The notes beneath the pieces were generated by a model. It was not told where the DNA came from and did no database searches. It saw nothing but the letters and a program-made list of their open reading frames with translations. Both the position numbers and the translations under genes were made by a program. A stretch of DNA of 63,892 bases, counting the filler, from Asterionella formosa (Eukaryota): the NCBI GenBank assembly GCA_002256025.1. It is 15 parts of 15 records of this genome, joined end to end, with 100 filler letters (N's around TTAATTAATTAA, not from the genome) between each part and the next. Parts side by side here need not be neighbours in the genome. Positions count along the whole stretch, not along the records: positions 1 to 22,360 come from NKIB01002775.1; positions 22,461 to 44,803 come from NKIB01002787.1; positions 44,904 to 46,272 come from NKIB01002791.1; positions 46,373 to 47,741 come from NKIB01002792.1; positions 47,842 to 49,210 come from NKIB01002793.1; positions 49,311 to 50,679 come from NKIB01002794.1; positions 50,780 to 52,148 come from NKIB01002795.1; positions 52,249 to 53,617 come from NKIB01002796.1; 7 more parts are not named here. One strand, written 5' to 3'. Positions 4,013 to 60,086 of this stretch are shown here, piece after piece. The stretch's first letter is position 1; each line of letters starts with the position of its first letter.

Positions 4013-4595
4013 GGTGACTCAAATCGAAACTAATTCAAGCTAATAAGAAAGTGATTGAACGATCGTGTTCGGGTTTTATGAGAACAACATGGAATAGTGT
4101 TTTGTATGGATGAATATTTATGAATCGTAGTAAAATATACTGGTACATCATTGTGTGGAAAACAGAGCGAATGAGAAACAACAAAATCTATCACATGTTG
4201 TTTGCTTGATTCAGTATTACCATTGCACCATGTGTTCAGAAACTAGTATATGTATAACGATAAGAACATCAGTAATGAATATTACATAAGCACATAAATT
4301 TATTTGACGCCGATATGTTTATGGATATACCGGTATGTAAGAACGATTGCTTTATTTCTTCTTCTATGTACTGTTTAGCACTACCGGTATATCATGTGTA
4401 TCCGGAAGACACGTCCTGTTTTATTCCAGTCGTATTCGAGTAAATATGCATGTAAACCGGAGCATATCAAACATATCATATCTCATTTGGAGGGATTTGA
4501 CACGATAGGTGCGCTCATGGTAATTCCCGGAAGAAAAGGAATTTATTTTATGTACTCCCGAGTACTAATAGCGACATGACTTGAAATTCGCATAA

Positions 4596-4630
4596 TAGGC
4601 GGCACATGCCGCCTAGACTCCGTTACTAGT
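4596..4630 (+). mobile_element. Helitron-like 3' terminus
   Basis: Perfect hairpin TAGGCGGCA-CA-TGCCGCCTA (4596-4615), a 10-nt spacer, CTAG (4626-4629), then T. This is the canonical Helitron 3' signature. The 5' end was not located. Confidence 0.6.
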
Positions 4631-5208
4631 ACCTGGTAGTCGTTCAATCCCATACCTTTGCTACTTGTGGGAGTAAACGGCTATTTACTAGGATCCTTGT
4701 AGAACCGTTAACCCTAGATTTGCCAATTGTTTGTCACCCTGTACGTACCTGCTACCCATTGAACGCAGAACAACACGTTTTGCTATCGAAACATACATGT
4801 GCATTCTGAGAGATCTGGTGGCTCCTTCTCGAGCATGTAGGCTAGTCAGCTATTTAGTTAGTTTGCGATTTGGAGTCAGTTGTTCATCTCAATAGATTGC
4901 CAGAAATAATGAATTGACCAAAACACATGGAGAACACGGATTAGAGTAAGTTTGGAGTTCTCATTGTCATAAAATTTACAATGATATATTCTCCCCTTTG
5001 TCCAATAACTGAAATTCAATTGCTTAGTATCCATCTGCTGATGTTTTGGTGTTGTTTGCATGGAATTTCAATTGATCTGACGATTCTACAGTGCCTTGTC
5101 AATGATTTCAATTTTGATACATGGCAAGAATTGAGTAATAAAGTCACCAGACGATGAATAGAAACTTTGCTTAACAAATTTAGGAGGATACCTGATGAAG
5201 TGTGCATC

Positions 5209-5412
5209 CTATCCATTGTATTTTCCAATTGTCTCCAACGGCTTGCCCAAAATATCATCCACCACAGCTAGCTTGAACCTGATCACATCATCTCTCTTCA
5301 ACGCCTTCCTGCAGCATTCATGTCACTTGCATGAGCGCCCATTGTTGTGAGCATTCAGGCCAAGCAACTCTCCATCACGTCGACTGTTGCTTGTTGAATG
5401 TGTTGTCGACAT
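5209..5412 (-). pseudogene. Decayed ORF of a Cys/His 'GRSCxxHxCC' family, probably TE-associated
   Basis: Reads MSTTHSTSNSRRDGELLGLNAHNNGRSCK*HECCRKALKRDDVIRFKL with an in-frame stop. Homologous to the ORF at 6511 (IFGLMANNDGHSCAHHRCCGSTVKVG). Confidence 0.5.
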
Positions 5413-6204
5413 AATTCATATTTTGTGTCCTGGCTGGTAGTACTGGTAGTATCGGTATTTTATATTGGTAGCGTCATTAATTTCTGCTACAAAAATCAGA
5501 ATTACAGTACGTTACTTTGTCTATATCTAGAAAATTGTTGGGTGTTTGGTGCCACCACGAAAAAAATGTACTGGGGGGGGGGGAAGGTTGCTGAATATTT
5601 CAATATTTGAACAAGGNNNNNNNNNNNNNNNNNNNTTTGTTATTTTCTATTTTTCCCCCCCCCCCCAGGGGGCCTTAGACTTGCGTGCTGTCTGCCACAC
5701 ACTCCGGAAACCTAGGGACTACATAAACAAAGCAGGTGAAGAATGCAGGAATCGAACCCACCACCTCAGTAGGTGAGCTATATTCAGATGACCTGATATA
5801 GTGTTTAAATTTATGTTGTAAACAATTCAGTACGTAGCAATAATCAATGATATAATTAAGCCCCGTAATGGACGTAGATTATAAGTAAATGAAAGGTACC
5901 TGGTAGTATGTGATGAATGAATATGATGACGCTTCGGTCGCAGAACCTGCTTTTGAGTACATTTAATCATAAACTAGATTTCAAGAAATCATTTTTACTT
6001 TTACCAACGCAGCATAGATTATCAAAAGTCATAGAACAAAATTTGATGTAAAATGATCTTATTCTTAGTTGTCCATAGTTATATTTTTAGTGTTTTTATT
6101 ATCATGCTGGTGTACAGTATTGCATTCTACAAATGAAATGTTTCAGGACAAGCACAGTTTCATCTACAAATATCATGTTCACAACTACGGACTGCTACCA
6201 GGTG

Positions 6205-7011
6205 CTCCCTCCTTCCGAAAATAGTTGCATCGATTATCGGAACCTTCACGGATTTTGTAGACTACATACCAATTTTCTACATGAGGGTCGACTTACTCGA
6301 AAATATGAGATTTTAATGTGTTACATAGACATGATCATAAAGTCTGTTTTTGTAATTAAATATTTATCATCTAAATAAATTGATCGAAAGCAATTTGACA
6401 TATATACATACATTGGGTACATGTATAGCTATATCAAACAAGAATGCTAATACATTGATTCTTCAAGTATAATTTTATCCACTTCCATCATCATTATTGG
6501 TATCGTCAAAATGAATGTTGACAATCACAACGTGCCCATTCTTGATGATCAGATCTTCGGCTTGATGGCAAACAATGACGGGCACAGCTGTGCCCATCAT
6601 CGTTGTTGTGGATCAACTGTGAAAGTTGGATCAGTGTTTTTTATCAAAACGAGCCGACCATCAATTTCGTCGTCTCCATCAGGTCCTCTTTTGAGGTTCC
6701 GTAAACCATAATGCAACACAAGCTGACGGTCTTCTGGTGATAGATCCCTTCTCGTATGCTTGTTGAGAAGAGGTGGTGGGGTCGGGCATCTTGATTTTGC
6801 TCGAGAGGAGCAAAATTAGAAATCGAAAAAGCCCAAAAACGTTTTTCAAATGTAGTTGCCAATTTTTATTTTTCTATATATTATCTGTGCATGATTCTGT
6901 AGCTTAGTGCAAGGCGCACTATAGGGCAATTGAGACAGAGAATATCGTAGTAGTCGAAATGGCCCTGTAGAAATTTAAAAAATCGATGCAACTATTTTCG
7001 GACGGAGGGAG
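6205..7011. mobile_element. Non-autonomous Tc1/mariner (Stowaway-like) element, 807 bp
   Basis: 31-bp TIRs at 6205-6235 and 6981-7011 (CTCCCTCC[T/G]TCCGAAAATAGTTGCATCGATT, 30/31 identical). TA on the right flank, TG on the left. Carries a short Cys/His ORF fragment at 6511-6711. Confidence 0.85.
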
Positions 7012-7517
7012 TACCAAGGTACCGGTAGTTATGAACAATTATGTACATCATGTTGAAGGACATGCTATGATTGTTTAGCTACATATTGTTCTGATATGAT
7101 GTGCATTTGGGTAATTATGGAGTTGACATCATATGAGCTCTTTTTTGGGGTAATTGTAAACCTCATCGAAATCATCAGATTTGGAAGTAAACACAGATGT
7201 GTTCTCAACCGATTCAATAAGTCGTTTCAAATTCTTCCTCGATTTTAAAACGTCTTCAAATGTAAACCCAAATAGACTATCCTTGGCTCTTTTTCAGAAC
7301 CATTTTTGATGCAAGGTTCCATTCGAATCTTTTTTCATGTTGATATGGGGATACGGTATGGTCAAAAATTGCAACAAAACGGAGTTCCATTACCACCGGT
7401 ATCCGTGATGGGAAGGCAACAGCAGCATCAGCAGCTGCATACAGCAGTCAGCCAGGTATTTGCATTCAGTATACTGGTAAATCATGCATGATGTTTATTG
7501 CATGTTCTTGGTACTGA

Positions 7518-7885
7518 GGGAATGGCTTTGTGGTTAAGCACGTTGTCTTGATCTGAGGTTGTGAGGTTGTTCGATTCCCGCAATTTTTTTGAGAAGCAAT
7601 TGTTGGGTTCGACTCCCACACTCCTTACCGTCTCGCACGGTCTTGCCTGGTGTGCAAGAAATAGTGGGTAGCCCCCCCCCCCTACTACAAGCAGCTTGTG
7701 CCGCCTTCCTGGGCGGTCGGAGTTTCCCCTAACGCTGCGGCTAAGACGATCACCTTTCGCAAAAGATGGTTGGGGTCTCTACGCTAACAAAACTAGGGAA
7801 GCACAGGTCTTGTCGGTAGGTAGCACAATGAAATGTTTGCCTTGAAAGAGGAGAGTACAAATGGGCTATAAAACATACTAACTTT
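7518..7885 (+). mobile_element. tRNA-derived SINE-like retroposon with a 16-bp target-site duplication
   Basis: Exact direct repeats ATGTTCTTGGTACTGA at 7502-7517 and 7886-7901. A-box-like TGGCTTTGTGG at 7523-7533. B boxes GTTCGATTCCC 7569-7579 and GGGTTCGACTCCC 7605-7617. The body is GC-richer with several hairpins. Confidence 0.8.
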
Positions 7886-9828
7886 ATGTTCTTGGTACTG
7901 ACCGCCATGTAGCATTACGCACATCACTAATATCTAATGTGACAAATGGATGATGATGATGATGATGATGATTATGATCATGCACTGTATTTTAGTTTGT
8001 GTTTGTTATAAGTATCTATTATGATCGTATTCTGCTAATGTTCTCTATAATAAACGTTCAAAATTATAGCTAGAAAGCATCAAATCATATGTTACTTTGA
8101 TCATATAAATGTGGTCATTGTATCATGTGATTGCAATCCAGTGATTGTGACAATGTGATGATTAATAATTTGTTGATTGTTGTAATCACAAGATTATATG
8201 ATATTAACGTTACCATCTGTTTTTGAGTGATAGAACTTAAGACTAAATATCATGTATGTATTGACAATACTTTGATTATAAATAAATCATCAAATCTTTT
8301 TATTCATATCAATGTATTTTGATACAATGGATCATGCAGGAATGGCAATATGCAATCGCCTCATACCAGTACAAGGTAGTTCACGCGTTGATATAGAAGA
8401 ATTGCAATGAAACATGATAAGGACTCAAGAATCACGTCATCAGGGCTTAATGCTGAACAATACAACCATTCACATCGTCGTCGTTGCTTGAGTGTTGACG
8501 ATGGAACGAAAATGGAGCGAGTGATGATGATGATGATGATGATGAGGCATTGATTTTAAATCGACTGCCGGGCAAACAACAAGAGTCACTATCTGGCATC
8601 TAAGGAACTACAGAATGATAATGGAAATTGAAGAAGATATTAACATTTTCTCATCAAACAAGAGCAACCATGCGAAAAATACAAACAAAGGTTCTCCATG
8701 CAACAGGGAATAGAATTTCATTGACTCCTTGAAGGAATGAATCAGGCAAGTATGGTGAAAAGTGACCACTTCAACTCCCACAGATACAAACAAAGATACA
8801 TACTTGCTGCACAGCTCCAATGAAAAGGCGAAAGAATGATTCCAAGCATTACAGCACACTAGTCACTTCACAGCACAAATTTTGCAGGCCAACATTGCTT
8901 GATATAAGATTGAGAGGTTGAGAGAGTGTTCCTTACCACAACTATCCCCACTTCAGCCACAGTGCCAGAAGTCACTACATATGTTAGGTTGATTTCAGTT
9001 GTTTTTTCAAAAAATTCTGCTAATACCAGGAAGCTCCATGGAAGCTGCCCTATAACAAATAGAGAAATTATATAGTGACGATGATTTTGAAATTGACTAT
9101 AATTATGTCCATGAAAATGCAGTGACCTACTACTTAGATGATGTATGGCAGCAAACTCACAATCTCAATTTTTATAGCAAACCCAAAGGAATCTTCAGGA
9201 AAAGATAGTTATGTAAATTATATGTAGGAGTATGTTTGTCCATACTAGGAAAGAAGGGTAAATCCTTCTGCAGATGTTGCAGACTAACCTAGAATGCTGG
9301 TCTACGAAGAAATATTCTAGTACCTGGTACCAGGGTACCATGGTACCGGTATCAGTTGTTAAAATCTGAGTATGGTATATCTGATGATGGATTGAATCTC
9401 GGCGTCAATAAATACATACATCAGGTGTACGTACGGTAGGCACTGCTATGTACCATATATCAACAAAAGTAATAAAAAATAGTTTTTGTTGCAACAATCG
9501 AGTAAAACAAAAAACGGTTTGGGGCAAAAATCTTCATGTATACGGGTACCGGTACATTAATAAAATATGGACTGAAAGAGAACGTTGTGAGTCAAAATGG
9601 GTAAAATTAAAATGGCTTAGTCCATGGAAATGTGTATATTTTGACAGTTTCGAGGGTTATTGCTTCACACGAATGAATGCATTGGATACAGAAATATAAA
9701 TCCAAGAATTGATGCGAAGGGTTCAAACATAGATTTTCATCCGCAATCATTTTGATGTCACAAAATCAAATCACAGTTCCATATATTTATAACATATATG
9801 CCGGTATTTTAATTTGGCTACCGGTATC

Positions 9829-11398: not shown

Positions 11399-11958
11399 TA
11401 AAAAGTTGCTGTAGTAACTGGTTTCTCAAGCTCGAGCTTGTGTTCTCGTAAATCAAGCACGCGAACACCATTACTTTGGTTTGGTATAATATAATTGTTC
11501 TTCTGAGGATGATCCCCCTATTGATGTGGGTGCTTATCTATCATAAGAATGCAATTTCACTAGTGAGACTGATAGTCATCATCATTTTTATACTCATATT
11601 CTAGGTGGAAACAACGATACAGAAGAAAGTGTGGTATCTTGAAAACAATTTCTATAATGTTTACGAACCGACGATGCAAAAGTTCAAAAATACAGTCAAG
11701 CGTAGGTGCAGTCTATTTGGCCTCATGATATATTCAACACGTGTTCTCGAAGAAATATCCATGTCGCCGAATCTAATAAAGTTCGGATGTTGTTAAACTG
11801 TTGCCCTACAACCTACCATACTCTTGATAATATGTAAGGTTCAAATACTAACAAACTAGACCAAAATGACTTGATATATGTACATACTCCGCACAGCTGT
11901 TTTTCCATTGTTTCATTTGTAAGCCGTCATCGTCACCATCACATGTCCAACATTCCAT

Positions 11959-14562: not shown

Positions 14563-14907
14563 CCTGGCATTGGTATCGAGTCTGCATTAGCACTGTGAGC
14601 TACACAATAACTAGCTACAGAGTATGCAATGAGCTACAGACAGAAGAAACAATCAGCAGAAACAACAGGAAGCTCAAGGAGCTTGACGAAAATGACAGGA
14701 ATGCAACAGCCTGATGCACCATTCTTTTGAAAAAAGTATTTGTTGATGCCCTGGCATCATAGGCAAATCTGCATTGGCGCTTCGAGATCATACACAATAA
14801 CTAGAGTGTATATAATAAGCTACAACTAGATTGAACAATCACAAAAAACAACAAGAAACTCAAGGAACTTCACTAAAATGACTGGAATGCAACAAGATGC
14901 AATATTC
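14563..14907. repeat. Degenerate ~185-bp tandem duplication
   Basis: cctggcat...tctgcatt...tacacaataactag...aacaatca...aaacaaca.gaa.ctcaagga.ctt...aaaatgac.ggaatgcaaca...gatgca occurs at ~14563 and ~14750. Confidence 0.7.
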
Positions 14908-15500: not shown

Positions 15501-17436
15501 CTATAGATTGTAATTCAGGATTTTGACTGTGCATCGATTAGCTTATCCCCTCCGTTCATAAGGGAAACCAATAAAAAAGGAATGGTGCGCGCATGACGGT
15601 TGCACATGTCATTCAACTCGTAAATGTTGCAAGAATTTACTGAAACCATAATTACCCAAGTTGCAATTATGATAACTGCTGTTGATCCCTCCTCCCGAAA
15701 TTCGTTTCCGTTCTTGCCAGTTGATTATTTTGATTACATGACCATGATTAAACCCCCCCCCCCCCCCTCTGGGTTCCAGCAGCCATATTCATCATGTTTG
15801 TTGGGCTTATACTGGGTTGGTTTAGGATTTCCAAAAATCTAGGCTGATTACGCCAGAAAGCGCAATGCGGACTACCCTACTAACACTTGAGCAGTATTCT
15901 TAATAAACAATGTTAATAATTACAACTTATATATATGAAGGATAAAGGCAGCATCATCCACGATTTTTATGCTTTGTTGATGCACATATGTTGCATCATT
16001 ATGTTTCCGTTATTTCAATTTTAAACCATCATCAGAAGCTTCATGAATACTCAGCTAGAGAGAGTCAATAGTGCTGGAGCAGCGTGGCGATCATTCTTGC
16101 TCAGAATGGAATGATCAGGGTTGCCTGTTTGGTGGTGGGTAGAGAGGAATGACTGTGGCGGAAATACTGCTACTGGTGTCAGGCTACTACAGCGATGCGC
16201 ATGGTTGCAGCAACCAGACCATTGACGCTAAATAACGATGCAGGTCTACATTGGGTTGAGCTTACTTTCTTCTTCTTTCGGTCTTCGATTGTATATGGTG
16301 ATGGAAAGTCAATGTTGCCTGTGTAAGTACTACAATGATTCACAATGCATACGTCTCCATCGGAACTCTTATTTTTTATTTCATTTCTAACCCAAAACCC
16401 CAATTTTTTCTATTTCTCATTTGATGCTACTTATTACATCGCATTTCATACTTTGGTTGCTCCAAACATCATGTTCAATTTTCATTGATGTTGCATGTTA
16501 CAATCATTCTCGTGTGTTTTACGCTTGTTGTACCATCTCTATGCATATTACCGATATTCTGGTTGTCATGCTAAAATCGGCAATTTTATTGCCGAAAAAT
16601 TCGATGTGCCCCATATTGCCCTTAAATAAAAATTACATAAGAAATTACTTAGAGCCTAAAAATTACTTAGAAGTACCCGAATGGCAAGACGATAGCTGGA
16701 GCGGGAATTGCCGGGATAACCTCTGTTCGCCCGAGATGGTAACTAGCAACCAACCGTTCTTTCGGCGACGTGCTCCTGAGAAGGAGCTCAAGGTACATAT
16801 TTCTACAATACATTTGTTCTGCTGATACCAGGTACCGGTGATTTCTTATGCATACCGGTACATATATGCATATGCATATCTCCTATGTTCTAACTCAAGT
16901 GCATCTTTTTCTACATTGCTTCTCGTATACTTGGTACTAAAAACCGACGCAAGCTAGGGCTAACAAACGAGGCAGGACACAAGAAGGGAGACTACTTTGG
17001 TAAAGGCAATGCTACTACTAGGCTTTGCGTTGACTTAGCTACAGCTTCAGGTATGGATAATGCTGCTCGTTGCACTGCCCATGGTAGGAGGAAGAGTATG
17101 ATTTCTTCACTTGTCAACTCTAGTGTTGCATTACCTACGAAGATCATTCTTGATAAATCCAGGCATGGATCAGCGGAAATAAATGCAAGGTACCAGCTCC
17201 CATCAAAGGAAATGCAGCATCAAGCAAGGATTGCAGTTTTTGAGAAGTTTGAAGATGCCAAGGACCAGCTTGAAACTCCCGAAATATATACTTCCGACTT
17301 TGCATTTGTTCCTCCTGATGTGAACAAATCAGTTGAATTTTCAACTCCAATTGACAATCCACCATTGATAATTTCCTGTCTCTCCAACTTGACTGTTGTC
17401 AACTGGCGACAACTAATAGTAGCTTCTACTTTATCC

Positions 17437-18298: not shown

Positions 18299-20650
18299 AG
18301 TCTGTATGATAAATCAGTAGCACTTAGCATTTCTACCGGTACCACAGTACCAGGTACCTGGTACCTGGTACTCCCTCTGGGCGAAAACAATTGTGTCAAA
18401 TTTTAAAATTTATCCGGGCTTCTTTGACTCCTACTATTTTCTCCAGCTCAATCGCCCTAATGTGCGTGCACAATCACATAATCCATAGCTGGTTGCAACC
18501 TGAAGATCAATATACCGGTACCAGGTAGTAGGATACGTAGGCCTTAGAATAGAGTTGTTTTGCATTTAATAATCAAGAGTAAAATTTGTGATGCACGCAC
18601 AAAATTGACGGAATATTTGTTCTTTATGATCTGATAAATCATATGTTACCTCCACTCATTTCCCCTCAAAAGGTACTATGCAACATCGATTTGTTGTTGT
18701 CGTTCATGTTTGTTGATTTTTTTGCTTGCTTTGTTGGTTTGTTGTTCACCATGTTAGATCATAGGCATATGTTGCCTTGCAGAAAATAAATGGAGGGCAA
18801 AGTAATTTGTTTTGAATCGTTTGAAAAGCTTCTCAATGCTGATGGGGTCTGCTTCATGTGTTTTGCCAACTTTGGTGTTTTGATTTAGTCTCTTCAATTA
18901 GTAAGTTGTGTTCTTGCGTCTTTGATTGTATTGCTTCTTGCTTCTTATCCTTTGCTCTATACTGACCAAAACCTCCAGAAATCTCAATGAATCGCTTGTT
19001 TCTTGATTTGAATGCCAAAGGGATCAAAACCAGTGGAAAAATCAAAAGGGAACTAAAAATTCTCTGCAAACATCAGGACAATTATGAAAGAGAAATGAAT
19101 GTTGGGAGGAGAGCGAAGTAAAGGGATAATTGCTTCTGGTCTTGTGGGAACAAGAATGGATTGACCCAAACAATGTTGACAAATAGGTACCTACCGGAAA
19201 AGGAAGCAAATCTTTAGGCATCATCAATCTATACACAAGCCTGCGCCACGCACCTGACGTCAATATAGCTACCTCGACTTCATCAATGAAGAAGCATGTG
19301 AGGAAAATCGGGGTTGAGGTTTTCCTGACGCCAACGTGCTTGGCTGAACTTGTTCATGAAGGCATTGAGTAACCTGGGCCTATGCAGCCAAAGGATAAAG
19401 AAAAATCTGTGACAGGAGTGGTAAGATAGTGTGTAAATGGAGGCATACCATCATGGCTGCTCTTCACTGACAGTTGTCAAGTCAATGAACAAACACATCA
19501 AGCAAGGGTGCACAAAAGACAGTCCCATTTTAATCTACTGGATGATACATAGTTTTGAGACTCACCATTCTGCAATGGGGTGGACTTTGATCATCGCTTC
19601 GTTCGAAGCACAATCAATTCAAATGCTGTCCAGTGAAACAATGAACACAATTGCGGCGAAAAAGCGCAGAACAGATCAAGAGATTTCATAGAAATTGAAT
19701 TAACAGGGCATATATGATGCACTGCTCCTTGTGTATATTTGATCATTTCCATATTTCATATACAGGTGCATGGTGGATGACTCCTCCCTATCATTAGATA
19801 TGCAGTCATGTTGCGATAATTCTACAAGACCTATAGGATTGGTAGTCTGGTGGTCATCATTTCCGCATTGTATATACCAGTAGGAGTCATGTGTTCATGC
19901 ATGCTGCAATAATTCTTACAAGACATAAAAATTTGGTAGCTTGGGGGAAATCACTTCCATACTTTATACAGGGGGGGGAATGCACGAGACATCTACTTCG
20001 GTATAAAGTATGATCTTTAATCAAAAAAATCGATTATCCTATACCTTCGATCATAACATAGTGATCAAATTAAAAATGGTGTCGTTGATGAGAAAATGAA
20101 AGATCAAAATTTATTTTCAGGAATTAGGATTTTATTTTCAGGAATTAGGATAAATTGATCTTAAAAATATGATCAAATGATCCTTAACACATGAGCATAT
20201 TCAGCTTTCCGCTGCACTATTGTGGTGCTCCCATGATTGAAGTAATACCCAGCAAGTATACAGTACTACCGGTAGGCCATATAATTTTTCGAATGTATAT
20301 GGTCAATATGTCTATCTTCATAAATGTTTGATTTAGATCATTTGAAAAGTTGGTGATGACTTCCCTTTATTAAGGGGCTTAATTTAATTTAATCAGCCAC
20401 TGACTTGTAGGTACAAGAATTGACACAAAACAAATTGAAAAAATTCAATATGTCGTGGAAAACTATGAACTCATCATGCATTGTATATATTTGAATTATG
20501 TATAATCAAAATTGATGTTAGTATACACAGGCTGTGTGCCATATTATGAGTGTTTTTAAAACTTTACAAATGTTCAAATATATATAAATTTACCCAAGTT
20601 GCAAATCTTTATATATATGAATACATGGCTGAAACATTTGAAATCATGTT

Positions 20651-21888: not shown

Positions 21889-22360
21889 ATGGCAATGTAT
21901 TCAAGGGTTCCTGTGATTCCTTTGATCAAAGACTACAATGTATTGACTATCAAAACTAAAACGTTCAGAGTTGCTTTAACCGGTGGAAGGTTTGAATCGT
22001 TTGATCAAGATATGATCGATGGAAGCTCAGTGGAAGCATTGTTAATTGGAGTTAGTCAATTTCGTGATATGGCTAACACATGTGACTTTAGCCCTGCAGA
22101 TACCTTTTCCTATTTTAAAAGGTGTTTGACAGACATTGCCTTATCGGATTGGTTGAATGTGGAAGTACACCCAGAAGATCAATCTTACGATAGTTTCGAA
22201 GAAGCGATGGCTTTATGGTTAGATGATCGTTTGCCAAATGAGAGTTTTCAACATCAACGACAATGGATGCTACGTTATTTATCTAAACCCTTTTCCATGT
22301 TGGTAATGGATTACGGAGCTCGTATTAAAACTTTAAACAGGCTACTTCAACTAATGCCTC
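21889..22360 (+). mobile_element. Ty3/gypsy-type gag N-terminal fragment, cut by the scaffold end
   Basis: DGSSVEALL...FKRCLTDIALSDW...QRQWMLRYLSKPFSMLVMDYGARIKTLNRLLQLMP resembles the major-homology-like region of diatom gypsy gag (Q..Y....L.KP..M....F..R...LN..L...P). Confidence 0.7.
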
Positions 22361-22460: not shown

Positions 22461-22469
22461 CAAAATATA

Positions 22470-24339: not shown

Positions 24340-24368
24340 GCATCGATTGTAGCATTTTTGAGTTGGTT

Positions 24369-34545: not shown

Positions 34546-36407
34546 CGTCTTTGCCTGCTACTGCAGCGGAAGACTCAGATGCAATGCGTCCTTTCTTTTA
34601 AATATATATCACAGGAGAATTTGAATTGCAAACTGAACGGAGTTGAGCACAATCTTTGGGTGAAGCCATCATACAGTCAGTACCTGGTCGTTGCTTGTAC
34701 ATACGAAAAAATACAGGAATTGCAGGAACATACCACGTTTGACAGGTACCAGGTAGAGTAAACCGGTGTGCCGGTATTTCAATTTCCTATGTGCATTCCT
34801 GGAGTGCCAGGCAACCGCTTGTACGTGTTAGTACCAAGTGTACCGGTGCGTACTCGATGCATGCATCCATACCGGTAGTGACTGTCATGTAGATGTGGTT
34901 TAGGATTAAACCATCAGCTACTGCGCTGTAATCCCAAATTTGACAGGTTGGTGTCCGAGTAGAATGCAGAAGGTGGGTGACATGGGGGATGACATCACTC
35001 ACCGAAGCATGAAGTGATACATTTATTATCCTCAGGATGGTATCTTTTATATATTCACTCAATGCTTCTATTGAAATTTGGCTGACGCCACCCTACCGGT
35101 AACGGTACTCCTTGCAGTTGTCGGCCACGCCAATGTAAGACCTGCACCTCCTGTGAGAGCGCAAGCCCGATGACGCCTTTGCAGAAGTCGGAGCAAGTTA
35201 GCTTACAATTCTTAATAGTCCTAACAGTCGTTTTACATTCCTTCCAATCAGCTGGAGTAGCCTTCCCAACGTCCAAGCCAGGCTGGTAGTTTGCTGTTAC
35301 ATATTTCGTATTATGGAAGCGTGCCGCTTGGCGTTTGAATTCTATTTGCCAGTAAGCTACGACACACCCGGTACTCGCATGAGCGAGCCAAAAGCAAGGG
35401 TCTACGTACATTTACTCGCGGCTGAAACGTATCTTCGCTGAGGGTCAACTCAACACCAGTTGACTACATACGGAGGAGGTATGCTGGTATGGATGGATGT
35501 ATGATGCTTGCTGATGGTGCTGACGACGACATTGTTCTCCGGGATGGCTGATGGAGTACTGGCACCTGGTACCTGGTACCAGGTACTAATTACCGGTAGG
35601 CTACCAGGTAGTGCGTTCTCACTCAAATCCTTTCTGATGCTTGTCCAACCAATGATGACGGTGCGTGGGTTGATCAAATTGAACACGAATGAATCATTCT
35701 GTCCGTTATCCGTCTCGAGTCGATGTCAATATAAGATACNNNNNNNNNNNNNNNNNNNNNNNNNNNNNNNNNNNNNNNNNNNNNNNNNNNNNNNNNNNNN
35801 NNNNNNNNNNNNNNNNNNNNNNNNNNNNNNNNNNNNNNNNNNNNNNNNNNNNNNNNNNNNNNNNNNNNNNNNNNNNNNNNNNNNNNNNNNNNNNNNNNNN
35901 NNNNNNNNNNNNNNNNNNNNNNNNNNNNNNNNNNNNNNNNNNNNNNNNNNNNNNNNNNNNNNNNNNNNNNNNNNNNNNNNNNNNNNNNNNNNNNNNNNNN
36001 NNNNNNNNNNNNNNNNNNNNNNNNNNNNNNNNNNNNNNNNNNNNNNNNNNNNNNNNNNNNNNNNNNNNNNNNNNNNNNNNNNNNNNNNNNNNNNNNNNNN
36101 NNNNNNNNNNNNNNNNNNNNNNNNNNNNNNNNNNNNNNNNNNNNNNNNNNNNNNNNNNNNNNNNNNNNNNNNNNNNNNNNNNNNNNNNNNNNNNNNNNNN
36201 NNNNNNNNNNNNNNNNNNNNNNNNNNNNNNNNNNNNNNTTGATGAATCATAAGAATCATACAATTACATGCCAGTAGTCAACTCCGAGTACATGTTATGA
36301 GGATCGTTCCATCCTTGAATATCATTGGTTCCCGATCGTAGTAACAGTAGAGCGCAACAAACCCAACAACAACTGGTGGTGACAACCATATCGCAATAGA
36401 AGCGACA

Positions 36408-41700: not shown

Positions 41701-43196
41701 CTCTATATTAGAGAAAATTCATTGCGACATCCAACTTAATTTTACAAGCAATACAAATATGTATGGTGTCGATGCACCAAGCTTCCTTATTGATTTACAA
41801 AAATGTTCATCTGTGAATTGTTGCATCCGAGTGGTGCGGCAGGTGTTTAAAAGCTATGTTTGGATAGAATACTGCTGTGCTATAGACTCATAGTCTTCTT
41901 TGGTTGCGAAAGTTAAGATTCAGAGCATTGCAACCAACAAAAACCCCTGTAGAGGTCTTGGAGATGTGTAGTACCTTCTTTGTGATGATGGCATTGTATA
42001 TTTTCATAGCAGAGCTCTTACTGGCGTTAATTATCCAGGCATATGAAGTGTAGTTGATACTACATTTCTGGAACCTAATGCTCTGTATCTGGATTTGTTA
42101 ATCCAGTTCCAATAAGTTGCAGTCGATTGACTGGAGCTAAATGCTTAACCATCTTCATCCAGAGGTGAATTGTCTATTTAGGCAAAATTACCACCACAAC
42201 TTGCCTGTCATGGGTATTAAAACCTCCCATCGCCCAACAACATACGACACTGTTGTTAGCAAGTACTGCCAGTTTAGCTACAGGAAACAGGAAATACATA
42301 ACAAGAAGGAGGAGTGATGATGAGTGTTGCATTTCTGCAGGGGATTCTTGAGGGCTTTTGTGAAAAGATGATCTTAAGCTGCTTTGGTTGTGGTGACATC
42401 TACTAGTATAGTAGACATGCACCAACATACATATAGTGTGACAGTGATTGTAAGCAAGATATCCTACCTGTACCCGGTATTGCTCCAGCCACGACTGACC
42501 GTGACCCGGAAGTGCTGATGATTTGTCCATCAGTAAGTTTCTTATGCAGCGTTACGACTAACGGTTATATAATATTGTATTTGAGCAATACTTGTATGGT
42601 AGTTACATGGTGGTCACCACCCCAGACAGAATACAGACAGCTCGTCGCGCTTCAGGGTTATGCCGGTAGTCGTGAAAGTACACCAATATTGACAACCATA
42701 CTTTCGATGCTACTAAATAATTTAATTCATGGATAAGCCTCAAAAATCGGTACAAAATGTGTCGATTTCTACAAGGTTACAGATAATGTTATTTATGGGT
42801 CGAAAATATCCTCTTTATACATTTTCCACGTGCGTCAAAATGATCTGGTGACAACGACATGCGAACGAAGTTGAGGATGATTAGTTCGCTTGCTCGTGCT
42901 TCGGTCCACTGTGCTCTCGTAATACTCTTACCGTTAAACTACCGGCACATAAATAATATAAACACACATACAAATCCCGTTCCACATAAAAACACAGAAT
43001 CGGTAGCTATCACATTAGAATATGGCATTCTTCTCCCGAAGTCTCCAGCAGGTTCCATTTCTACAGTGTACAGTTAAATAAAGTACAGTATACGCACAAA
43101 TAAACGGATGACCCAAAATATTATCAAAAAGACGGGCACGTACCGGTAATTTATCCTCATTGTCAGCTGTTGTAACGATTTTCATTTATTGGGACC

Positions 43197-45084: not shown

Positions 45085-45179
45085 CAGGCAAGTTGCGATG
45101 AATTTGCTTAAACTAAAAGTTTAGCTATCTTTATCCCATATTAATTGTTAGTTTAAGCAAAATTACCGCAACTTGCAGG
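45085..45179. mobile_element. ~95-bp foldback MITE flanked by TA
   Basis: 29-bp inverted arms at 45088-45116 and 45148-45176 (GCAAGTTGCG..TTTGCTTAAACTAA, 3 mismatches). TA at 45083-84 and 45180-81. Confidence 0.65.
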
Positions 45180-48489: not shown

Positions 48490-48910
48490 TTAACTGCAGT
48501 ATAAAATCACCAACCTATGCCTGGTAACTGGAATTGTACATAGGGTGCCTGATACCCTACCATACCGGTACCCTGGTACCAGGTACCAGTACCTGGTGCT
48601 GGTAACTGGTACCTGGTACTTCTGCCAGGTAACTGGAATTGTACACACCGATATGATACAGTACCCGGTATGCATACTGTGCCAGTATTGACAATTAATT
48701 CTACCCCCAATACTACCATTTTTTGAAGTAGTGAAAGCTAGTGCACTAGTTAACTATCATGATGCACTTACAAAGCATGCACTGTGTGTGAGTGGGCAGT
48801 GCCACTGTGCTGGTACCAGGTACCAGGGTTACCAGGGGCGATGCTGTTACAATGCATGAAGTACCCTGGTACCGGTACCTGGTACTACGGTATGTACCAG
48901 GTACCAGCAC
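48490..48910. repeat. Cluster of palindromic TACC(W)GGTA / GGTACC micro-repeats
   Basis: Examples: taccggtaccctggtaccaggtaccagtacctgg at 48563, and further runs at ~48812 and ~48862-48908. Confidence 0.8.
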
Positions 48911-52148: not shown

Positions 52149-53318
52149 NNNNNNNNNNNNNNNNNNNNNNNNNNNNNNNNNNNNNNNNNNNNTTAATTAA
52201 TTAANNNNNNNNNNNNNNNNNNNNNNNNNNNNNNNNNNNNNNNNNNNNTTAGAACGCATTTCATTTTCATATCGCTCGCTCGTTTCTGCATTTGGCATAC
52301 TGTACTTGAATTAACTATTGAACTTGTCCGCATCTTTGATACCATCAAGAGAGCGAAAGCAAGTGGCTCTTTTCATTGTTGTTTGCTTGTAGGAAGAATT
52401 TGATATCTGTATCGTCATTTGCTTGTTGGAATTGTCCGTTGCCTCAAACCTGCTTGGCGTGTGCGTACACACACTGTCGACTTGTTTTCATTGGTATGTT
52501 GTTCTTGTATTCACTGTTGAACTTGTCCGCATCTTTGTTAACATCAATAGAGCGACAAGTGGGTTTCTTCATTGTTATTTGCTCCTGGAAAAGTCGGTGT
52601 CCGTGTCATCCTCATCAATAGAGAGACAAGTTCTTTCGTTGGAAAAATTGGTACTCGTGGTATCATTATTCGCTCGTTGGAACCACTGTCCGTTTCCTCA
52701 AACCTGATTAGCGTGTGAGTATGTGCACTGTCGACTTTTGTACATTACAGGCGGAGTGACTTCGCTACTAAATTGCGTGATATAATAATATACCCCGTAG
52801 CACGATGAAGAATACAGTTGCTTCCCAATCATCTCATCATGATTGACAAGATGATACTGTGATATCATGATAAGGTTACATCGATGCATACATCACCAAA
52901 GTATGATACTTAATATTGAATAAAGTACATCACATAGCTATGATACATTGATCCTAAAATTATGTTGATTTTATGAAATATATATGATACAATTTTGATC
53001 AAAATATGATCATGTAAAAATAGTACAATGACAATAAAATACGATAAAATATGTACGCAAGTGTTATCGATACATCACAGAATATAAATCAAGCAATCAT
53101 AAAGTATGTTAATTAATATATATGTTTGTCGTTTATTATATACAGTTAAAGTCAACAGTTAATATGATAGTATTATACAGTGGATAGGATCTAAGTATAC
53201 GGATGCGTTGATATGTACATCACTATAATATGATTTGTGATATGGATTGATGCATATCACATACCGGTATCCTCAACAACCAGCCATCACGTTCATTGTC
53301 GTGTCGTCTTTCCTTGTT

Positions 53319-53543
53319 TTAGCTATATATATGCTCAGATCCGTTCCATTGCAAATCTTCCTTCAATAGGTCAAACTCGTCATCCTTGAGCATTTGCCTT
53401 CCAGTGGCATACCGGTAGTAGGACTGAAGCGCGTCCAGAAAGATACGCTCCTTTTCGGCTACTGTGAGACGAATGAGTTCCCCACTTTCCGGATCGACGA
53501 CACAGTATTCCTCGTCAGGACTACTTTCGTTTTTGCTTGATTC
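53319..53543 (-). pseudogene. PGRL1: Truncated PGRL1 (PGR5-like 1) exon fragment
   Basis: After a TAG acceptor: EEYCVVDPESGELIRLTVAEKERIFLDALQSYY[RY]ATGRQMLKDDEFDLLKEDLQWNGS. This aligns by eye with the plant PGRL1 motif E.EFL.ALQ.FY..GK..MS.EEFD.LKE.L.W.GS. Premature stop right after WNGSEHIYS. Confidence 0.75.
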
Positions 53544-53772
53544 CTATGGGGAAAGATGGAAGTAAGAATTTTTATTTACTCATAAATAGTTACTAACAAA
53601 ATGGTTATTTGTTTTTANNNNNNNNNNNNNNNNNNNNNNNNNNNNNNNNNNNNNNNNNNNNTTAATTAATTAANNNNNNNNNNNNNNNNNNNNNNNNNNN
53701 NNNNNNNNNNNNNNNNNTCACTCTACCTATCCCTATCACTATCCCTCTCCCTCTCTCTTTCCCTATTCCTAT

Positions 53773-53808
53773 CCCTAACCCTAACCCTAACCCTAACCCT
53801 AACCCTAA
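53773..53808 (-). repeat. Interstitial telomere-like (TTAGGG)6
   Basis: (CCCTAA)6 flanked by degenerate CCCTAT/CCCTCT units, ~80 bp downstream of the LRR stop codon. Confidence 0.9.
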
Positions 53809-53887
53809 CCCTTGGCAACTTAAGTAGTCACCCATCGTCGCTTGGATAATAGTCATTGTAGCCCTCACACATACACATACCCTAACC

Positions 53888-55085
53888 CTATACAAAAGCT
53901 GGTGAAGAAACAGGGTTCAAGGAATTGAATGGTGCAGGAAGCGTGCCAGTGAAAGTATTATTGTCCAAATCTAGATAATTGAGACTTGTCAAGAGTCCAA
54001 TCTCTGTGGGAAGTGTGCCAGTGAAAGTATTGTAAGACAAAACTAGATCAGTGAGACTTGTGAAGAGTCCAATCTCTGTGGGAAGTGTGCCAGTGAAAGT
54101 ATTGCCAGAAAAATTTAGATAATTGAGACTTGTCAAGAGTCCAATCTCTGTGGGAAGTGTGCCAGTTAACCGATTAGGACCCAATGATAAGAATGTTAAG
54201 CTTGACAAGAGACCTAGCTCAGTTGGAATTTTTCCAGTTAGATCATTTCCATTTCGATTTTGGTGACCTCCATGTCCAACGTTCAAATGTCCTGTAATCA
54301 TTAAAATATGAAAAATCAATGATTTGCTGTATTCTTTTGCCACAGTTTTTAATCTTCATTTTTTTCATTTACTTACGTAGTTTTGTCAACTGAGGCCAAT
54401 TTGAACTGATATTTCCAGATAATAAAACATTGTCGCCAAAGTCCATAACAACTGTGTCACAACAAAATGTTGTTAGTATTTAATCACACTTTTCTATCAC
54501 AATTGTTATTGCCTGTACTTACAAAGATTGGTCATATTTCCAAAAATGGATGGTAATTCTTCAATGAAGTTAGCTGAGCAGTTGAAGTACTCTTTTATAA
54601 TAATTGGAAAAATGAGAAGTTGTATCAGAAATTATAAATCATCAAAACCTTTATTTTCTGATTTTTTGTCACTCACCTATGTTTGAAAGATGACTGAAGC
54701 TCAAAGGTAAGTTAAAAATTGTATTGTTGCTCAAGTCAATGTGATCTGATTTAAATTACAAAGGCGAAATCAAATAGTTAGTTTGCATAACTTTTTTTTA
54801 AGCAAAAACATGTTTATCGCAATGCACTTACTCATTCTTTCACTTAGAACTGCTACTTCTGGAGGAATGGATCCAACAAGACCTTCACCACTGAGTTGCA
54901 GTGATGTTATAAATGTTCCATTGCAACCAATTCCTTTCCAATCACAAAAGTTGTAGTCGCCATATTCATTTGGTTCTAGCCATTTTTCATAAGTATTTGA
55001 TTGAGACAGAGTACTAAGCCATGTTTTTCCAACTACTTCAAAATAGATTACCGCCAAAACATAGTGTTGGAGCAAGTTGAAATCA
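53888..55085 (-). CDS. Leucine-rich-repeat protein, 5'-partial, variant 1
   Basis: Exons 55085-54832, 54745-54677, 54591-54523, 54451-54377 and 54291-53888, all with GT-AG introns. Cap QHYVLAVIYF...CDWKGIGC and plant-type LxLxxNxFTGTLPTEIGLL repeats. Confidence 0.85.
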
Positions 55086-56553: not shown

Positions 56554-56653
56554 NNNNNNNNNNNNNNNNNNNNNNNNNNNNNNNNNNNNNNNNNNNNTTA
56601 ATTAATTAANNNNNNNNNNNNNNNNNNNNNNNNNNNNNNNNNNNNNNNNNNNN

Positions 56654-57851
56654 TGATTTCAACTTACTCCAACGCTATGTTTTGGCGGTAATCTATTTTG
56701 AAGCATTTGGAAAAACATGGCTTAGTACTCTGTCTCAATCAAATACTTATGAAAAATGGCTAGAACCAAATGAATATGGCAACTACAACTTTTGTGATTG
56801 GAAAGGAATTGGTTGCAATGGAACATTTATAACATCACTGCAACTCAGTGGTGAAGGTCTTGTTGGATCCATTCCTCCAGAAGTAGCAGTTCTAAGTGAA
56901 AGAATGAGTAAGTGCATTGCGATAAACATGTTTTGCTTTAAAAAAAAGTTATGCAAACTAACTATTTGATTTCGCCTTTGTAATTTAAATCAGATCACAT
57001 TGACTTGAGCAACAATACAATTTTTAACTTACCTCTGAGCTTCAGTCATCTTTCAAACATAGGTGAGTGACAAAAAAAAAGAAAATAAAGGTTTTGATGA
57101 TTTTTAATTTCTGATACAACTTCTCATTTTTCCAATTATTATAAAAGAGTACTTAAACTGCTCAGCTAACTTCATTGAAGAATTACCATCCATTTTTGGA
57201 AATATGACCAATCTTTGTAAGTACAGGCAATAACAATTGTGATAGAAAAGTGTGATTAAATACTAACAACATTTTGTTGTGACACAGTTGTTATGGACTT
57301 TGGCGACAATGTTTTATTATCTGGAAATATCAGTTCAAATTGGCCTCAGTTGACAAAACTACGTAAGTAAATGAAAAAATTGAAGAGTAAAAACTGTGGC
57401 AAAAGAATACAGCAAATCATTGATTTTTCATATTTTAATGATTACAGGACATTTGAACGTTGGACATGGAGGTCACCAAAATCGAAATGGACATGATCTA
57501 ACTGGAAAAATTCCAACTGAGCTAGGACTCTTGTCAAGCTTAACATTCTTATCATTGGGTCCTAATCGGTTAACTGGCACACTTCCCACAGAGATTGGAC
57601 TCTTGACAAGTCTCACTGATCTAGGTTTGTATTCCAATACTTTCACTGGCACACTTCCCACAGAGATTGGACTCTTGACAAATCTCACTGATCAAAGTTT
57701 GTATGCCAATACTTTCACTGGCACACTTCCCACAGAGATTGGACTCTTGACAAGTCTCATTTTTCTAGATTTGGACAATAATACTTTCACTGGCACGCTT
57801 CCTGCACCATTCAATTCCTTGAACCCTGTTTCTTCACCAGCTTTTGTATAG
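56654..57851 (+). CDS. Leucine-rich-repeat protein, 5'-partial, variant 2
   Basis: Exons 56654-56907, 56994-57062, 57148-57216, 57288-57362 and 57448-57851 with phase-1 GT-AG introns. Near-identical to the reverse complement of 53888-55085. Confidence 0.85.
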
Positions 57852-57930
57852 GGTTAGGGTATGTGTATGTGTGAGGGCTACAATGACTATTATCCAAGCG
57901 ACGATGGGTGACTACTTAAGTTGCCAAGGG

Positions 57931-57966
57931 TTAGGGTTAGGGTTAGGGTTAGGGTTAGGGTTAGGG
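57931..57966 (+). repeat. Interstitial telomere-like (TTAGGG)6
   Basis: Six perfect units, then degenerate ATAGGG/AGAGGG units up to the contig end. Confidence 0.9.
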
Positions 57967-60086
57967 ATAGGAATAGGGAAAGAGAGAGGGAGAGGGATAG
58001 TGATAGGGATAGGTAGAGTGANNNNNNNNNNNNNNNNNNNNNNNNNNNNNNNNNNNNNNNNNNNNTTAATTAATTAANNNNNNNNNNNNNNNNNNNNNNN
58101 NNNNNNNNNNNNNNNNNNNNNGCTCCCAAGCAGTGTGCAGTCCAAATGCTATGATGGAATCCGCAAGCGAGACCATGATGAGTCACTTTTCTACTCAGTC
58201 ATTTTCGAGTACCAGGTATTAATAATACATTTAGCTATCATAATGATGGTTTCTATAGTACATAGTAATTCCAGCATGGCTGCATTTGATCATTTCAACT
58301 ACAACGCCGATTACTGGTACAGCCGCCACAAAAAAAACGCTAGTCAAATATGATCACCCAAAATAATTATTTGGGTGGCCCAATATGACGAATTTAGCTA
58401 CGTACATAATTTAAGGGTATGACATCACAAAAAAATATGACGCATCACACAATATATATGGACGGAGTGAACTAAAATAGTTTTAACAACTTCCATAATT
58501 ATTTTAGAAACCCACATAATTTTTGGGGGCAACTGACAATATTTTCTTGCGACACAAAAAACAATTTGTTCAGTAATAATCTCTATAATACGGTACTTTT
58601 CTCGACAATTCGCAACATTTCCGTTCACAAATATTCTTCACTCTGACTATCATTAATTTTGTTAGTTTGCTCCCATTTTATCTTTACTTTGATCACATTA
58701 ATACCTCAAGGTTAAACAAATATATATGCTAGTCAAACAAATAATTATGTGTAACCAATCAACGTTTAAATTAAATTCTAGCTACAATCGCAAAATCAAT
58801 CAAATTAATCGCTTCGCTATATAGTTTATATTGATACTTTCTATAGAACGTGATTCTCAAACCAATAAGACAAGCAATGGATGTTCATTCTTGCAGCTGG
58901 ATGCTGTAACTTAACGCAAGATTGCTTGGCTACTCATAGTACTTGCAGGAATCCATGTTTACTACCGGTAGATCAATTCATAGCAAATGAGCCGGCTGCT
59001 CATTCTCATTGCTCGGATTGATTGTCTTTTGTAGAAAGAGGGAAACATTTGCAGAGTGAGTTGATGAGAAAAAAAGTTACGAAGCCATGATTTCGTTTCT
59101 GCTGTGCTCCTTACCATGTTCCCCAATGGCCAACCCAGCCCTGATCATATGATTGTCTGCAACCAGTGAACAACAATCATAGATTGAGTTCATGAACAAA
59201 CAATCGTTACAAAGGCATCATTTTCGTTGTGCTTAGCTACCATGCCGCAGCCTGAATCCCAACAAATCTCTCGCTCAACAGATTGATTGTCTGTAGACAA
59301 AGAACAGCGTTTGCAGAGTAAGTTCGTGATCAACAAGCAAGTAACAAGCACACAATCAAGCCCTTTTTATAATTCATTACAAATAGCAATTCATGCGCTA
59401 ACAATTCCGAACAAAGACGAAGGAGAATAGTAGGAGAGGAGATCCGCCCACAACAAGCAACAGCAAACAGTATCAAGCAACAAAAGGCAAGANNNNNNNN
59501 NNNNNNNNNNNNNNNNNNNNNNNNNNNNNNNNNNNNTTAATTAATTAANNNNNNNNNNNNNNNNNNNNNNNNNNNNNNNNNNNNNNNNNNNNCTTGCCCT
59601 TAAATAAACACTTGCCCTTAAATAAACAATACAAGAAAGGATAAGGATACCTCCTATGTAAGGGTTTAGTAACAGGACGTACATTACAATAGCACGCCAT
59701 ATAGGCAACAGATAACAGTATGATGGGAGAGGAATTGCACATCGAATATATTGGAGTAATATATATGTACATATAACCGCTTGCCATATATACATATTCA
59801 AACCAGATATATATAGACTCATAAAAAGCCAACACTTTTCGACTAAAGCAATATACCCACGCTTTAACCGCGAGCCATAAATATATTGATACCATTTATA
59901 GTTAAAAACACGTTTTCCACTGAACAAATGTACCCACGCCTTAACTGCAAGCCATGTATATATATCCACACCATGTATATTATATAATCAGAAAGAGCAG
60001 CACTTTTTTACTGAAACGCACTACCGGTAGTGGCGCTATGGCTCTGTAACCGTAACCCTAACCCAAAATTACCTAAAGCTGTGTAC

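Follow-up and report, generated by a model that had tools for sequence, protein, structure and literature searches.

TA-bounded palindromes in the Asterionella formosa genome as probable excision footprints of resident pogo-type transposons

Footprints left by departing transposons are usually regarded as rare curiosities, and that of Sleeping Beauty is TAC(A/T)GTA. Excision of Passer, of the pogo family, leaves 0–4 bp (PMC9976928), ZB footprints are described as 0–3 bp, with 2–4 bp in general (PMC7913693), and TACATGTA is cited as the Tc1 footprint in PMC3520976. In oomycetes, TA-bounded palindromes were read as factor-binding sites (PMC3597505, PMC3520976, PMC10031896), and the footprint idea for TACATGTA was rejected in PMC3520976 on grounds of abundance and conservation. 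The palindromes described here resemble the Passer, ZB, Sleeping Beauty and Tc1 footprints in the TA target, the doubled TA and the few terminal bases that would be left. They were studied in a stretch of 63,892 nucleotides of A. formosa DNA (the window), consisting of joined contigs, and in the whole genome. The spacers between the contigs of the window read N44-TTAATTAATTAA-N44.

Abundance, placement and insertion at TA

The window contains TACCGGTA 25 times, compared with 0.30 expected from an order-1 and 1.2 from an order-3 Markov background, and TACCWGGTA 20 times (11 TACCAGGTA and 9 TACCTGGTA; expected 0.30 and 0.82). For the other 15 TA-NN-N'N'-TA palindromes the counts range from 0 to 11, TATATATA being the most frequent. 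Genome-wide, TACCGGTA was counted 28,528 times (reversed control, 1,718) and TACCWGGTA 26,886 times (reversed control, 902), and together the intact copies, approximately 55,000 in 68 Mb, rank as the top over-represented words. This enrichment, which a first-pass annotation had proposed to measure against a Markov background, confirms its observation of pervasive palindromes; TACCGGTA is present at 4328, 9819 and 43141, where it had been placed, and at 22 further positions, and the runs at 9321–9351, 18334–18370, 35564–35610 and 48563–48620 were all found (Table 1). The motifs are present on many of the joined contigs and, as that annotation had also held, absent from intact genes: none of the 45 window motifs lies in coding DNA (10.3 expected; 13 hand-drawn coding stretches of the window, 14,151 bases). 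Fifteen motifs lie at most 800 bases upstream of nine genes, and none lies downstream.

Comparison of repeat copies supported an origin of the motifs as insertions at TA. Among six-base indel sites, 17 of 47 were TA -> TACCGGTA, none of the 17 being a tandem duplication; among seven-base sites only 2 of 23 were TACCWGGTA, again with no duplication, and TACCWGGTA indel flux in aligned repeats was near zero. The indel count that had been suggested as a check thus fits insertion at TA. The commonest empty copy lacked TA at 3 of the 17 sites, one of which was resolved by a genome-wide count. TACAGTA indels were seen at two sites. TAGCTA and TASTA inserts also occur, and no maker was found for either; a GCTCGAG-ended element was rejected as the TAGCTA maker, its true end lying further out and without a TA flank.

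A captured exon (53367–53519, minus strand; reading ...QSYYRYATGRQ...) is part of a high-copy repeat. Genome-wide, its insertion site matched 56 copies with plain TA and 17 with TA+CCGGTA, and these 73 matches held no other insert of 1–9 bases. A further 74 copies carry a substitution, the eight best-scoring insertion-free copies have GA or AA rather than TA, and no transposon stood at the site in any copy found (one match looked unrelated). The clean six-base addition that the first-pass annotation had named as its key clue therefore stands; the exon, which that annotation had labelled PGRL1 and which is presumably of that gene, received no name from Pfam or Atlas. At the 245-copy GG-TA-C site (Table 1), no clean TACCWGGTA was found.

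Table 1. Motifs, chains and element sites in the window
Position	Strand	Feature
4328..4335		Lone TACCGGTA, one of the window's 25, lying upstream of gene with edge ~4012
6205..7011		Presumably a Stowaway-like element (named from its end motif), CTCCCTCC ends, within scar cluster; followed by TACCAAGGTACCGGTA at 7012-7027
9321..9351		Chain of four different scars with common TAs: CCTGG, CCAGGG, CCATGG, CCGG
9547..9826		Two TACCGGTA, at 9547 and 9819
16531..16532	-	Empty GG-TA-C site in repeat with 245 empty copies; family E element there in the L163 copy
16826..16860		TACCAGGTA and TACCGGTA
18334..18370		Chain TACCGGTA ... TACCAGGTACCTGGTACCTGGTA, terminating at CTCCCTC element end
18513..18527		Mixed chain TACCGGTACCAGGTA
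22343..22344	+	Empty TA of three-state site (L089, family A element; L117, TACCGGTA)
35564..35610		Scar cluster flanked by two divergent genes
43141..43148		TACCGGTA singleton immediately upstream of gene
45166..45179	-	End of another CCWG-ended element (CCTGCAAGTTGCGG), then TACCTGG, then TACCGGTA at 45195
48563..48620		Scar cluster; second cluster at 48814-48903
53262..53269		TACCGGTA common to most copies of exon-carrying repeat
53410..53417		TACCGGTA in captured exon, in-frame 6-base insertion
60022..60029		Final TACCGGTA of the window

Resident elements and their targets

TA-flanked elements with CC...GG termini, which had been predicted from the window, are present in the genome: families A and B have CCG...CGG ends and families D and E have CCA...TGG ends, and a CAG-ended family C is present as well. 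The earlier idea of a single TA-targeting transposon holds as to TA targeting but not as to number, there being at least two candidate maker classes, CCG- and CCA-ended. Exact element ends numbered 89 for A (search pattern including the TA), 221 for D and 77 for E, and empty copies of element sites have a single TA. Three complete TA-CCGTA...TACGG-TA elements were found (L031, L036 and L034), and nine copies of CCG-ended elements are ~99.4–100% identical over 1,955 bases. The genome gave 93 matches to Pfam DDE_1; family A encodes such a transposase with DD35D spacing, and the intact-looking transposases belong to it. Of 30 Atlas hits for the family D frame, 27 point to DDE_1-like features (0.95); this frame has no Pfam match, and family E has degenerate frames only. 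A search for DDE_3 gave no matches; one for Transposase_1 also gave none, but it gave none in control genomes either and hence is no proof of absence. The makers are thus likely resident TA-flanked pogo-type (DDE_1) transposons, and by their terminal letters the CCG-ended elements fit as the putative source of TACCGGTA.

The flanks of the elements match those of the motifs. The TA at D and E ends was preceded by G in 55 of 64 cases and by GG in 45, and at TACCWGGTA half-sites in unanchored DNA by G in 89 of 112 and by GG in 60. Family A ends showed little target bias (G, 24/74; GG, 6/74), and TACCGGTA half-sites gave 41/136 and 20/136. The GG bias persists off scars (8/19 and 13/21, compared with 7% of TAs). 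Elements also land on scars: 13 of 64 D/E ends lie on a TACCWGG scar, compared with 0.6% of TA half-sites, in a strict count that merged near-identical flanks and required the whole TACCWGGTA, while in a looser count 21 of 54 ended in CCWGGTA. Of the GG-TA ends, 13/45 (29%) lie on a scar, the same fraction as that of GGTACC half-sites preceded by one (60/208). Only 1 of 74 ends of the CCG-ended class lies on a scar; re-targeting of the product, as first proposed, is accordingly shown for the CCA-ended class with its TACCWGGTA scar but not for the CCG-ended class. Within GGTACCWGGTACC lie 9,910 of the 26,886 TACCWGGTA scars (control, 5); for TACCATGGTA the reversed control contains GGTACC and is unfair. 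On contigs from public metagenomes, 7 of 8 D ends were on GGTA and five on TACCWGGTA, and a comparison of their flanks with 850 kb of loci gave no homologue that both reached the end and carried a scar. One D element adjoins another D (L191), an E element adjoins a Stowaway-like end (L145), and several families occur in a single cluster. Matching ends, TA duplication, target bias, flank match and landing on scars are, like insertion at TA and enrichment, direct observations.

From 32 element ends with other copies of the flank, one TA was recovered in three states, being occupied in L089, scarred in L117 and empty in 99 of the first 100 of 117 listed copies. The L089 and L117 copies are 83% alike and therefore represent two separate insertions. 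No occupied/scarred allele pair was found, nor were three-state sites for D/E or at the exon site. Two family D cases were dropped, L112/L040 as the element's own target site and L138/L181 as the end of another element, and the third sequence to match the pattern of the family A three-state site, L204, was unrelated.

Four sequencing runs were compared with positions 5636–22360 of the window; the tables were dominated by high-copy repeats, and only contig sizes were used. Run X5 was identical to the window over the listed pieces and was left out of the independent samples, and the listed rows contained no motif-level allele. In other studies one motif was shared and one stretch was 6 bases shorter, namely region 9460–10172 in contigs from three studies, compared by length and not by letters.

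Probable excision with proposed feedback, and alternatives

The motifs are very probably footprints left by the excision of resident cut-and-paste transposons of the pogo type, with feedback between scar and target; the transposon-scar origin suggested at first is supported by the TA indels and the resident elements with matching ends. An element would insert at TA and double it, and on exit the transposase would cut a few bases within the element ends, which end-joining would retain between the two TAs. The CCG-ended families A and B would leave CCGG, and the CCA-ended families D, E and relatives CCWGG, sometimes CCAGGG. We infer excision as the source of the insert, as well as this assignment of families to scars, an offset of 3 or 4 bases for the cut, and the repair route. 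Since A and B would accept nearly any TA, their scars would be scattered. D and E would favor GG-TA-CC, and because their scar starts with TA-CC and ends with GG-TA, each visit would improve the site; a visit to GGTACC would leave two GGTACC, a positive feedback that would build chains. The TACCGGTA scars would provide half-sites as well, and the promoter bias would be accounted for only by assuming open-chromatin targeting.

A cut offset of 2 bases fits poorly, with W unexplained and TACATGTA not enriched, and offsets of 3 and 4 bases are both compatible with the data (CCAGGG, 3,393; CCATGG, 330; CCWGCWGG, 109). CCGGTA indels amount to 1.1–4.1 per 1,000 substitutions, which predicts 0.13–0.51 motifs per kb; 0.41–0.43 were seen. 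The stock would be held by a rate of about 1e-4 scars per genome and generation, and a hyperactive transposon is unnecessary. The proposed genome-wide, self-amplifying micro-insertion is therefore retained in its re-targeting part (CCA-ended elements, TACCWGGTA) and in its scale (28,528 and 26,886 copies), but not for the CCG-ended class or for hyperactivity.

A different division of labor would make only the TACCGGTA class from scars, with replication slippage, or unequal exchange of 7-base units, as the main origin of the TACCWGGTA chains and with elements that only happen to land there. This is suggested by long pure runs (L100, with CCCTGGT repeats, and L108), by the few TACCWGGTA indels in repeats, by the CAG-duplicated forms that dominate in TACCWGCWGGTA (37 among the 50 sites listed first) and by adjacent W letters, which agree slightly more often (30) than they differ (20). 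Slippage, however, would copy W and give ~100% agreement, whereas 30 of 50 is not distinguishable from one half (p = 0.20); moreover, 37 of 38 runs have only two or three units, chains mix different inserts (9321–9351), and both TACCWGGTA indel sites are non-duplicative, so we consider this account unlikely. Selection that keeps and adds transcription-factor binding sites in promoters would explain the upstream placement, the identity of TACCGGTA with Phytophthora motif M94 (PMC3597505) and the link of GTACCGGTA (motif-9) to infection-stage expression in PMC3520976 and PMC10031896. Yet whole six-base blocks are found in individual copies of dead repeats, of transposons and of the captured exon, and the two paralogous window genes differ in motif position (3 bases ahead of the start at 9829, compared with ~316 ahead of that at 4012), rather than showing the conserved positions that the first-pass annotation had taken as favoring such sites. 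Binding also gives no account of insert letters and flanks that match resident element ends and targets, which makes it an improbable origin, although the motifs may later have come to be used as binding sites.

A transposon-free repair quirk, in which a hairpin is opened or the template is switched at TA and the palindrome is thereby written, agrees with inserts that are all palindromic or nearly so and with the TAGCTA and TASTA inserts that have no maker found. Such repair copies local sequence, whereas 17 contexts with no relation to one another received identical letters here, and these letters are those at the ends of resident elements that duplicate TA; hairpin repair, the alternative offered at first, is unfit because the insert letters are fixed and copy no neighboring sequence (0/17 tandem duplications), and we hold it very improbable. 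An assembly or library artefact might be suspected from the fragmentation into 15,436 contigs and the artificial spacers of the window, but the motifs avoid coding DNA, are inherited by repeat subfamilies, occur in independent samples and decay, with TACCAGTA/TACTGGTA at 39 compared with 3–12 for five other one-letter classes, leaving next to no probability for an artefact.

Comparison with described systems

Excision footprints of resident transposons would here constitute a class of mutation that arises a few times per thousand substitutions, and the scars a lasting, family-by-family record of transposition that outlives the elements. A scar that rebuilds its target would be a simple route by which a transposon makes safe harbors and writes low-complexity promoter DNA, and comparing indels between repeat copies with element ends and targets provides a test usable in any genome. 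More tentatively, and with slightly less than even confidence, we propose that cut-and-paste transposons can be one of the chief sources of short non-coding sequence, with persistent scars becoming the commonest words of the genome; that the self-rebuilding loop herds several families into havens upstream of genes; and that the TA-bounded promoter palindromes of oomycetes and other eukaryotes (TACATGTA, TACCGGTA, TACTAGTA) have the same origin, whether later bound or not.

The open-access literature yielded no paper on genome-scale footprints or a target-rebuilding scar. In oomycetes, M93 (TACATGTA), M94 (TACCGGTA), motif-1 and motif-9 are described as TA-bounded and abundant upstream of genes (PMC3597505, PMC3520976, PMC10031896); M94 is the same 8-mer as here in another stramenopile group, the oomycete genomes being represented by these papers alone. 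High abundance is compatible with footprints, contrary to the argument in PMC3520976, and this gives reason to revisit published catalogues of motifs where these words were called binding sites as too abundant for footprints. Insertion hotspots and nested MITEs are alike in repeated landing at one spot and differ in that the spot is a host feature or AT repeat, whereas here the elements' own scars would write it. The preferred target of ZB and Sleeping Beauty is ATATATAT (PMC7913693), in contrast to the G+C-rich target GGTACC that the scar would rebuild here. Compared with Passer, ZB, Sleeping Beauty and Tc1, the present palindromes differ in having 4–6 bases inserted, a single dominant product for each class and ~55,000 intact copies as top words. 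The kind of scar is thus already known; its scale and feedback are unusual.

Abundance and placement of the TA-bounded palindromes

The first-pass annotation had read the palindromes TACCGGTA (CCGG between two TAs) and TACCWGGTA (CCWGG between two TAs) as products of a recurrent insertion process at TA, for example transposon excision scars or hairpin repair. The scar version is the best reading. The motifs are real and genome-wide, and resident TA-flanked elements with matching ends, insertions at TA and a flank match to element families D and E make them very probably pogo excision scars. The window holds 25 TACCGGTA and 20 TACCWGGTA against 0.30 of each expected under an order-1 model (1.2 and 0.82 under order 3), confirming the enrichment over a Markov background. 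In the whole Asterionella formosa assembly (fragmented, eukaryotic, 68.4 Mb; the window joins some of its 15,436 contigs by artificial spacers), TACCGGTA occurs 28,528 times and TACCWGGTA 26,886 times, versus 1,718 and 902 for reversed controls. Ten unanchored 10-kb stretches have 0.43 and 0.36 per kb, and the window 0.41 and 0.32. The reported absence from intact genes was borne out: hand-drawn coding stretches totaling 14,151 bases contain none of the 45 window motifs, where 10.3 would be expected. Around nine window genes, 15 motifs lie within 800 bases upstream and none downstream. The one-letter variants TACCAGTA/TACTGGTA number 39, versus 3–12 for five other such classes, an excess consistent with TACCGGTA decaying at its CpG or with a minor product of repair.

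Other features of the window and of loci (L) fetched from the assembly
Feature	Position	Strand	Remark
Secreted-looking Thr/Pro-rich protein gene	2910-4012	-	paralogue of 9829-11398
Secreted-looking Thr/Pro-rich protein gene	9829-11398	+	internal duplication of ~170 residues
Very high-copy repeats	16238-16795; 19028-22360		depth summed over contigs exceeds that of single-copy stretches by a factor of hundreds in 4/4 runs
Repeat with captured exon, called PGRL1 in the first-pass annotation	52249-53617 (L001-L010)		at least 147 copies
Two contigs, near-identical reverse complements	53718-55085; 56654-58021		leucine-rich-repeat exon adjoins (CCCTAA)n telomere-like repeats
Small family; its long inverted repeats begin with GTCAAGAATATTAGCTCGAG	L078:3005-5475; L171-L183		no TA flank
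20-base perfect palindrome CCAATTTGGATCCAAATTGG	L106:3916-4045		follows TA in five distinct contexts

Algal and freshwater metagenomes are among the data sets that contain a gene-rich stretch of the window.

Insertions at TA and their rate

The captured exon, in which a clean 6-bp addition had been noted, belongs to a repeat with 614 candidates in the assembly (40 scored); among ten fetched loci, L003 and L007 show clean TA to TACCGGTA gains in single copies. At the exon site, eight fetched copies without the insert carry GA or AA instead of TA, which at first spoke against the addition; the whole genome settled the matter in its favor, with plain TA in 56 copies, TA+CCGGTA in 17, no other insert of 1–9 bases, and a substitution in 74 further copies. 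The 17 scarred copies probably descend from one event.

We compared ~850 kb of loci and the window all against all (8,668 alignments, 80–99.9% identity; a non-random sample, as the loci were mostly picked around element ends) and merged 3–12-base indels with clean flanks into sites. The anticipated indels, CCGGTA or CCWGGTA after TA, were recovered: TA became TACCGGTA at 17 of 47 six-base sites, none a tandem duplication, and TACCWGGTA arose at 2 of 23 seven-base sites. Stacked inserts such as TACCGGTACCGGTA and TAGCTAGTACTA were also seen. The survey further yielded inserts of TAGCTA at TA (12 sites), TASTA (29 non-duplicative and 13 duplicative sites) and TACAGTA (two sites). TAGCTA and TACTA/TAGTA inserts stack on each other too (repeat copies in L055, L040, L082, L171, and L181, for example), the 29 non-duplicative TACTA/TAGTA sites amounting to ~5 per 1,000 substitutions; no maker element for either insert was found among the loci examined. 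Outside the assembly, 9460-10172 (two motifs, 713 bases) corresponds to 707 bases in contigs of three other studies, the differing letters being unlisted, and the motif at 7020 is spanned gaplessly by another contig.

For every 1,000 substitutions, the three bands of identity compared show 1.1, 1.9, and 4.1 CCGGTA indels, predicting a balance density of 0.13–0.51 motifs per kb (0.41–0.43 seen). With the substitution rate reported for another diatom, 4.77e-10 (PMC6604790), each stock stays steady if a haploid genome gains ~1e-4 new scars in each generation; the hyperactive transposon proposed earlier is therefore not needed. TACCWGGTA does not pass this test, its indel rate in aligned repeats being near zero; this is the main gap in the scar reading, and these motifs probably originate in poorly alignable GGTACC clusters or outside repeats.

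Candidate maker elements and proposed end chemistry

A DDE_1 search of the assembly gave 93 matches. Complete TA-flanked elements fall into family A (L031 and L036; 2.46 kb) and family B (L034), both CCG-ended, and the CAG-ended family C (L012). A scan for TA-flanked inverted repeats brought out two CCA-ended families, D and E, so that elements with the suspected CC...GG termini are indeed resident (A, B, D, and E); a further CCWG-ended family has one end in the window at 45179. Exact ends number 221 for D and 77 for E (TA not in the pattern) and 89 for A (TA in the pattern). Family D carries a DDE-like frame for which 27 of 30 Atlas hits point to DDE_1; a Pfam search of this frame gave no match. 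Where elements insert, empty copies of the host repeats show a single TA. Nine family A copies at different sites share ~99.4–100% identity over 1,955 bases, so A looks recently active. In this pogo-type family (L014-L023, L031, L036), another reading frame lies close to the left end on the opposite strand; the family could serve as a native transposon tool for diatoms. The TA at 22343 has no insert in the window, and the same holds for 99 of the first 100 of the 117 copies listed; L089 has a family A element there and L117 has TACCGGTA. As these two are diverged copies, the comparison appears to show one site used twice rather than a single event followed through.

Sleeping Beauty and Mos1 excision leaves 3-base 3' overhangs. 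With such overhangs, CCG ends would pair by CG to give CCGG, and CCA ends would overlap with a mismatched A to give CCWGG. Four-base CCAG overhangs would instead yield CCWGG by a 3-base overlap and CCAGGG by a 2-base overlap. In the assembly the CCAGGG form outnumbers CCATGG tenfold (3,393 vs 330), and full 4-base fill-in products are rare; a cut offset of 3 or 4 bases may hold.

Target preference, feedback, and published counterparts

After merging of near-identical flanks, 64 of 74 D/E ends had TA, preceded by G in 55 and by GG in 45; away from any scar, GG precedes TA at 8/19 D and 13/21 E ends, versus 7% of all TAs. In unanchored DNA, TACCWGGTA half-sites have a preceding G in 89 and GG in 60 of 112, and TACCGGTA half-sites in 41 and 20 of 136. 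The six-position flank profile of TACCWGGTA nearly equals that of D/E, and TACCWGGTA flanks thus mirror the D/E target bias, which TACCGGTA flanks do not to a like degree.

The motif process had also been said to re-target its own product. For the CCA-ended class this feedback loop is supported: a TACCWGG lies directly at 13 of the 64 D/E ends (versus 0.6% of TA half-sites), and 9,910 of the 26,886 TACCWGGTA lie in the context GGTACCWGGTACC (control, 5), in which one GGTACC has become two. This support does not extend to family A, which lacks a GG preference (6/74). Target preference alone explains the D/E landings on scars, since the 29% of GG-TA ends found there equals the share of GGTACC half-sites following a scar (60/208). 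Neighboring W letters within a chain match in 30 cases and differ in 20 (p = 0.20), as expected of separate events and not of slippage. Among eight D ends in public metagenome contigs (four from two contigs, possibly one study), seven lie on GGTA and five on TACCWGGTA. In L191, two family D ends face across one TA (…GTGG TA CCAC…), the element's own end thus forming a preferred target too.

The event type is known; its scale and the loop are without published precedent found in open-access literature, where no description of genome-scale footprints or self-made targets was found (subscription papers not covered). Reports on pogo-family Passer and Tc1/mariner elements give footprints of 0–4 bp (PMC9976928, PMC7913693), whereas the A. 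formosa scars have CCGG or CCWGG inserted between TAs. Candidate binding sites listed for Phytophthora include TACCGGTA and TACATGTA (PMC3597505) and also GTACCGGTA (PMC10031896, PMC3520976); a Tc1 footprint origin was raised there for TACATGTA, then rejected over abundance and conservation (PMC3520976). The same word TACCGGTA is thus taken as a candidate binding site in Phytophthora, and is best read in A. formosa as an excision scar.
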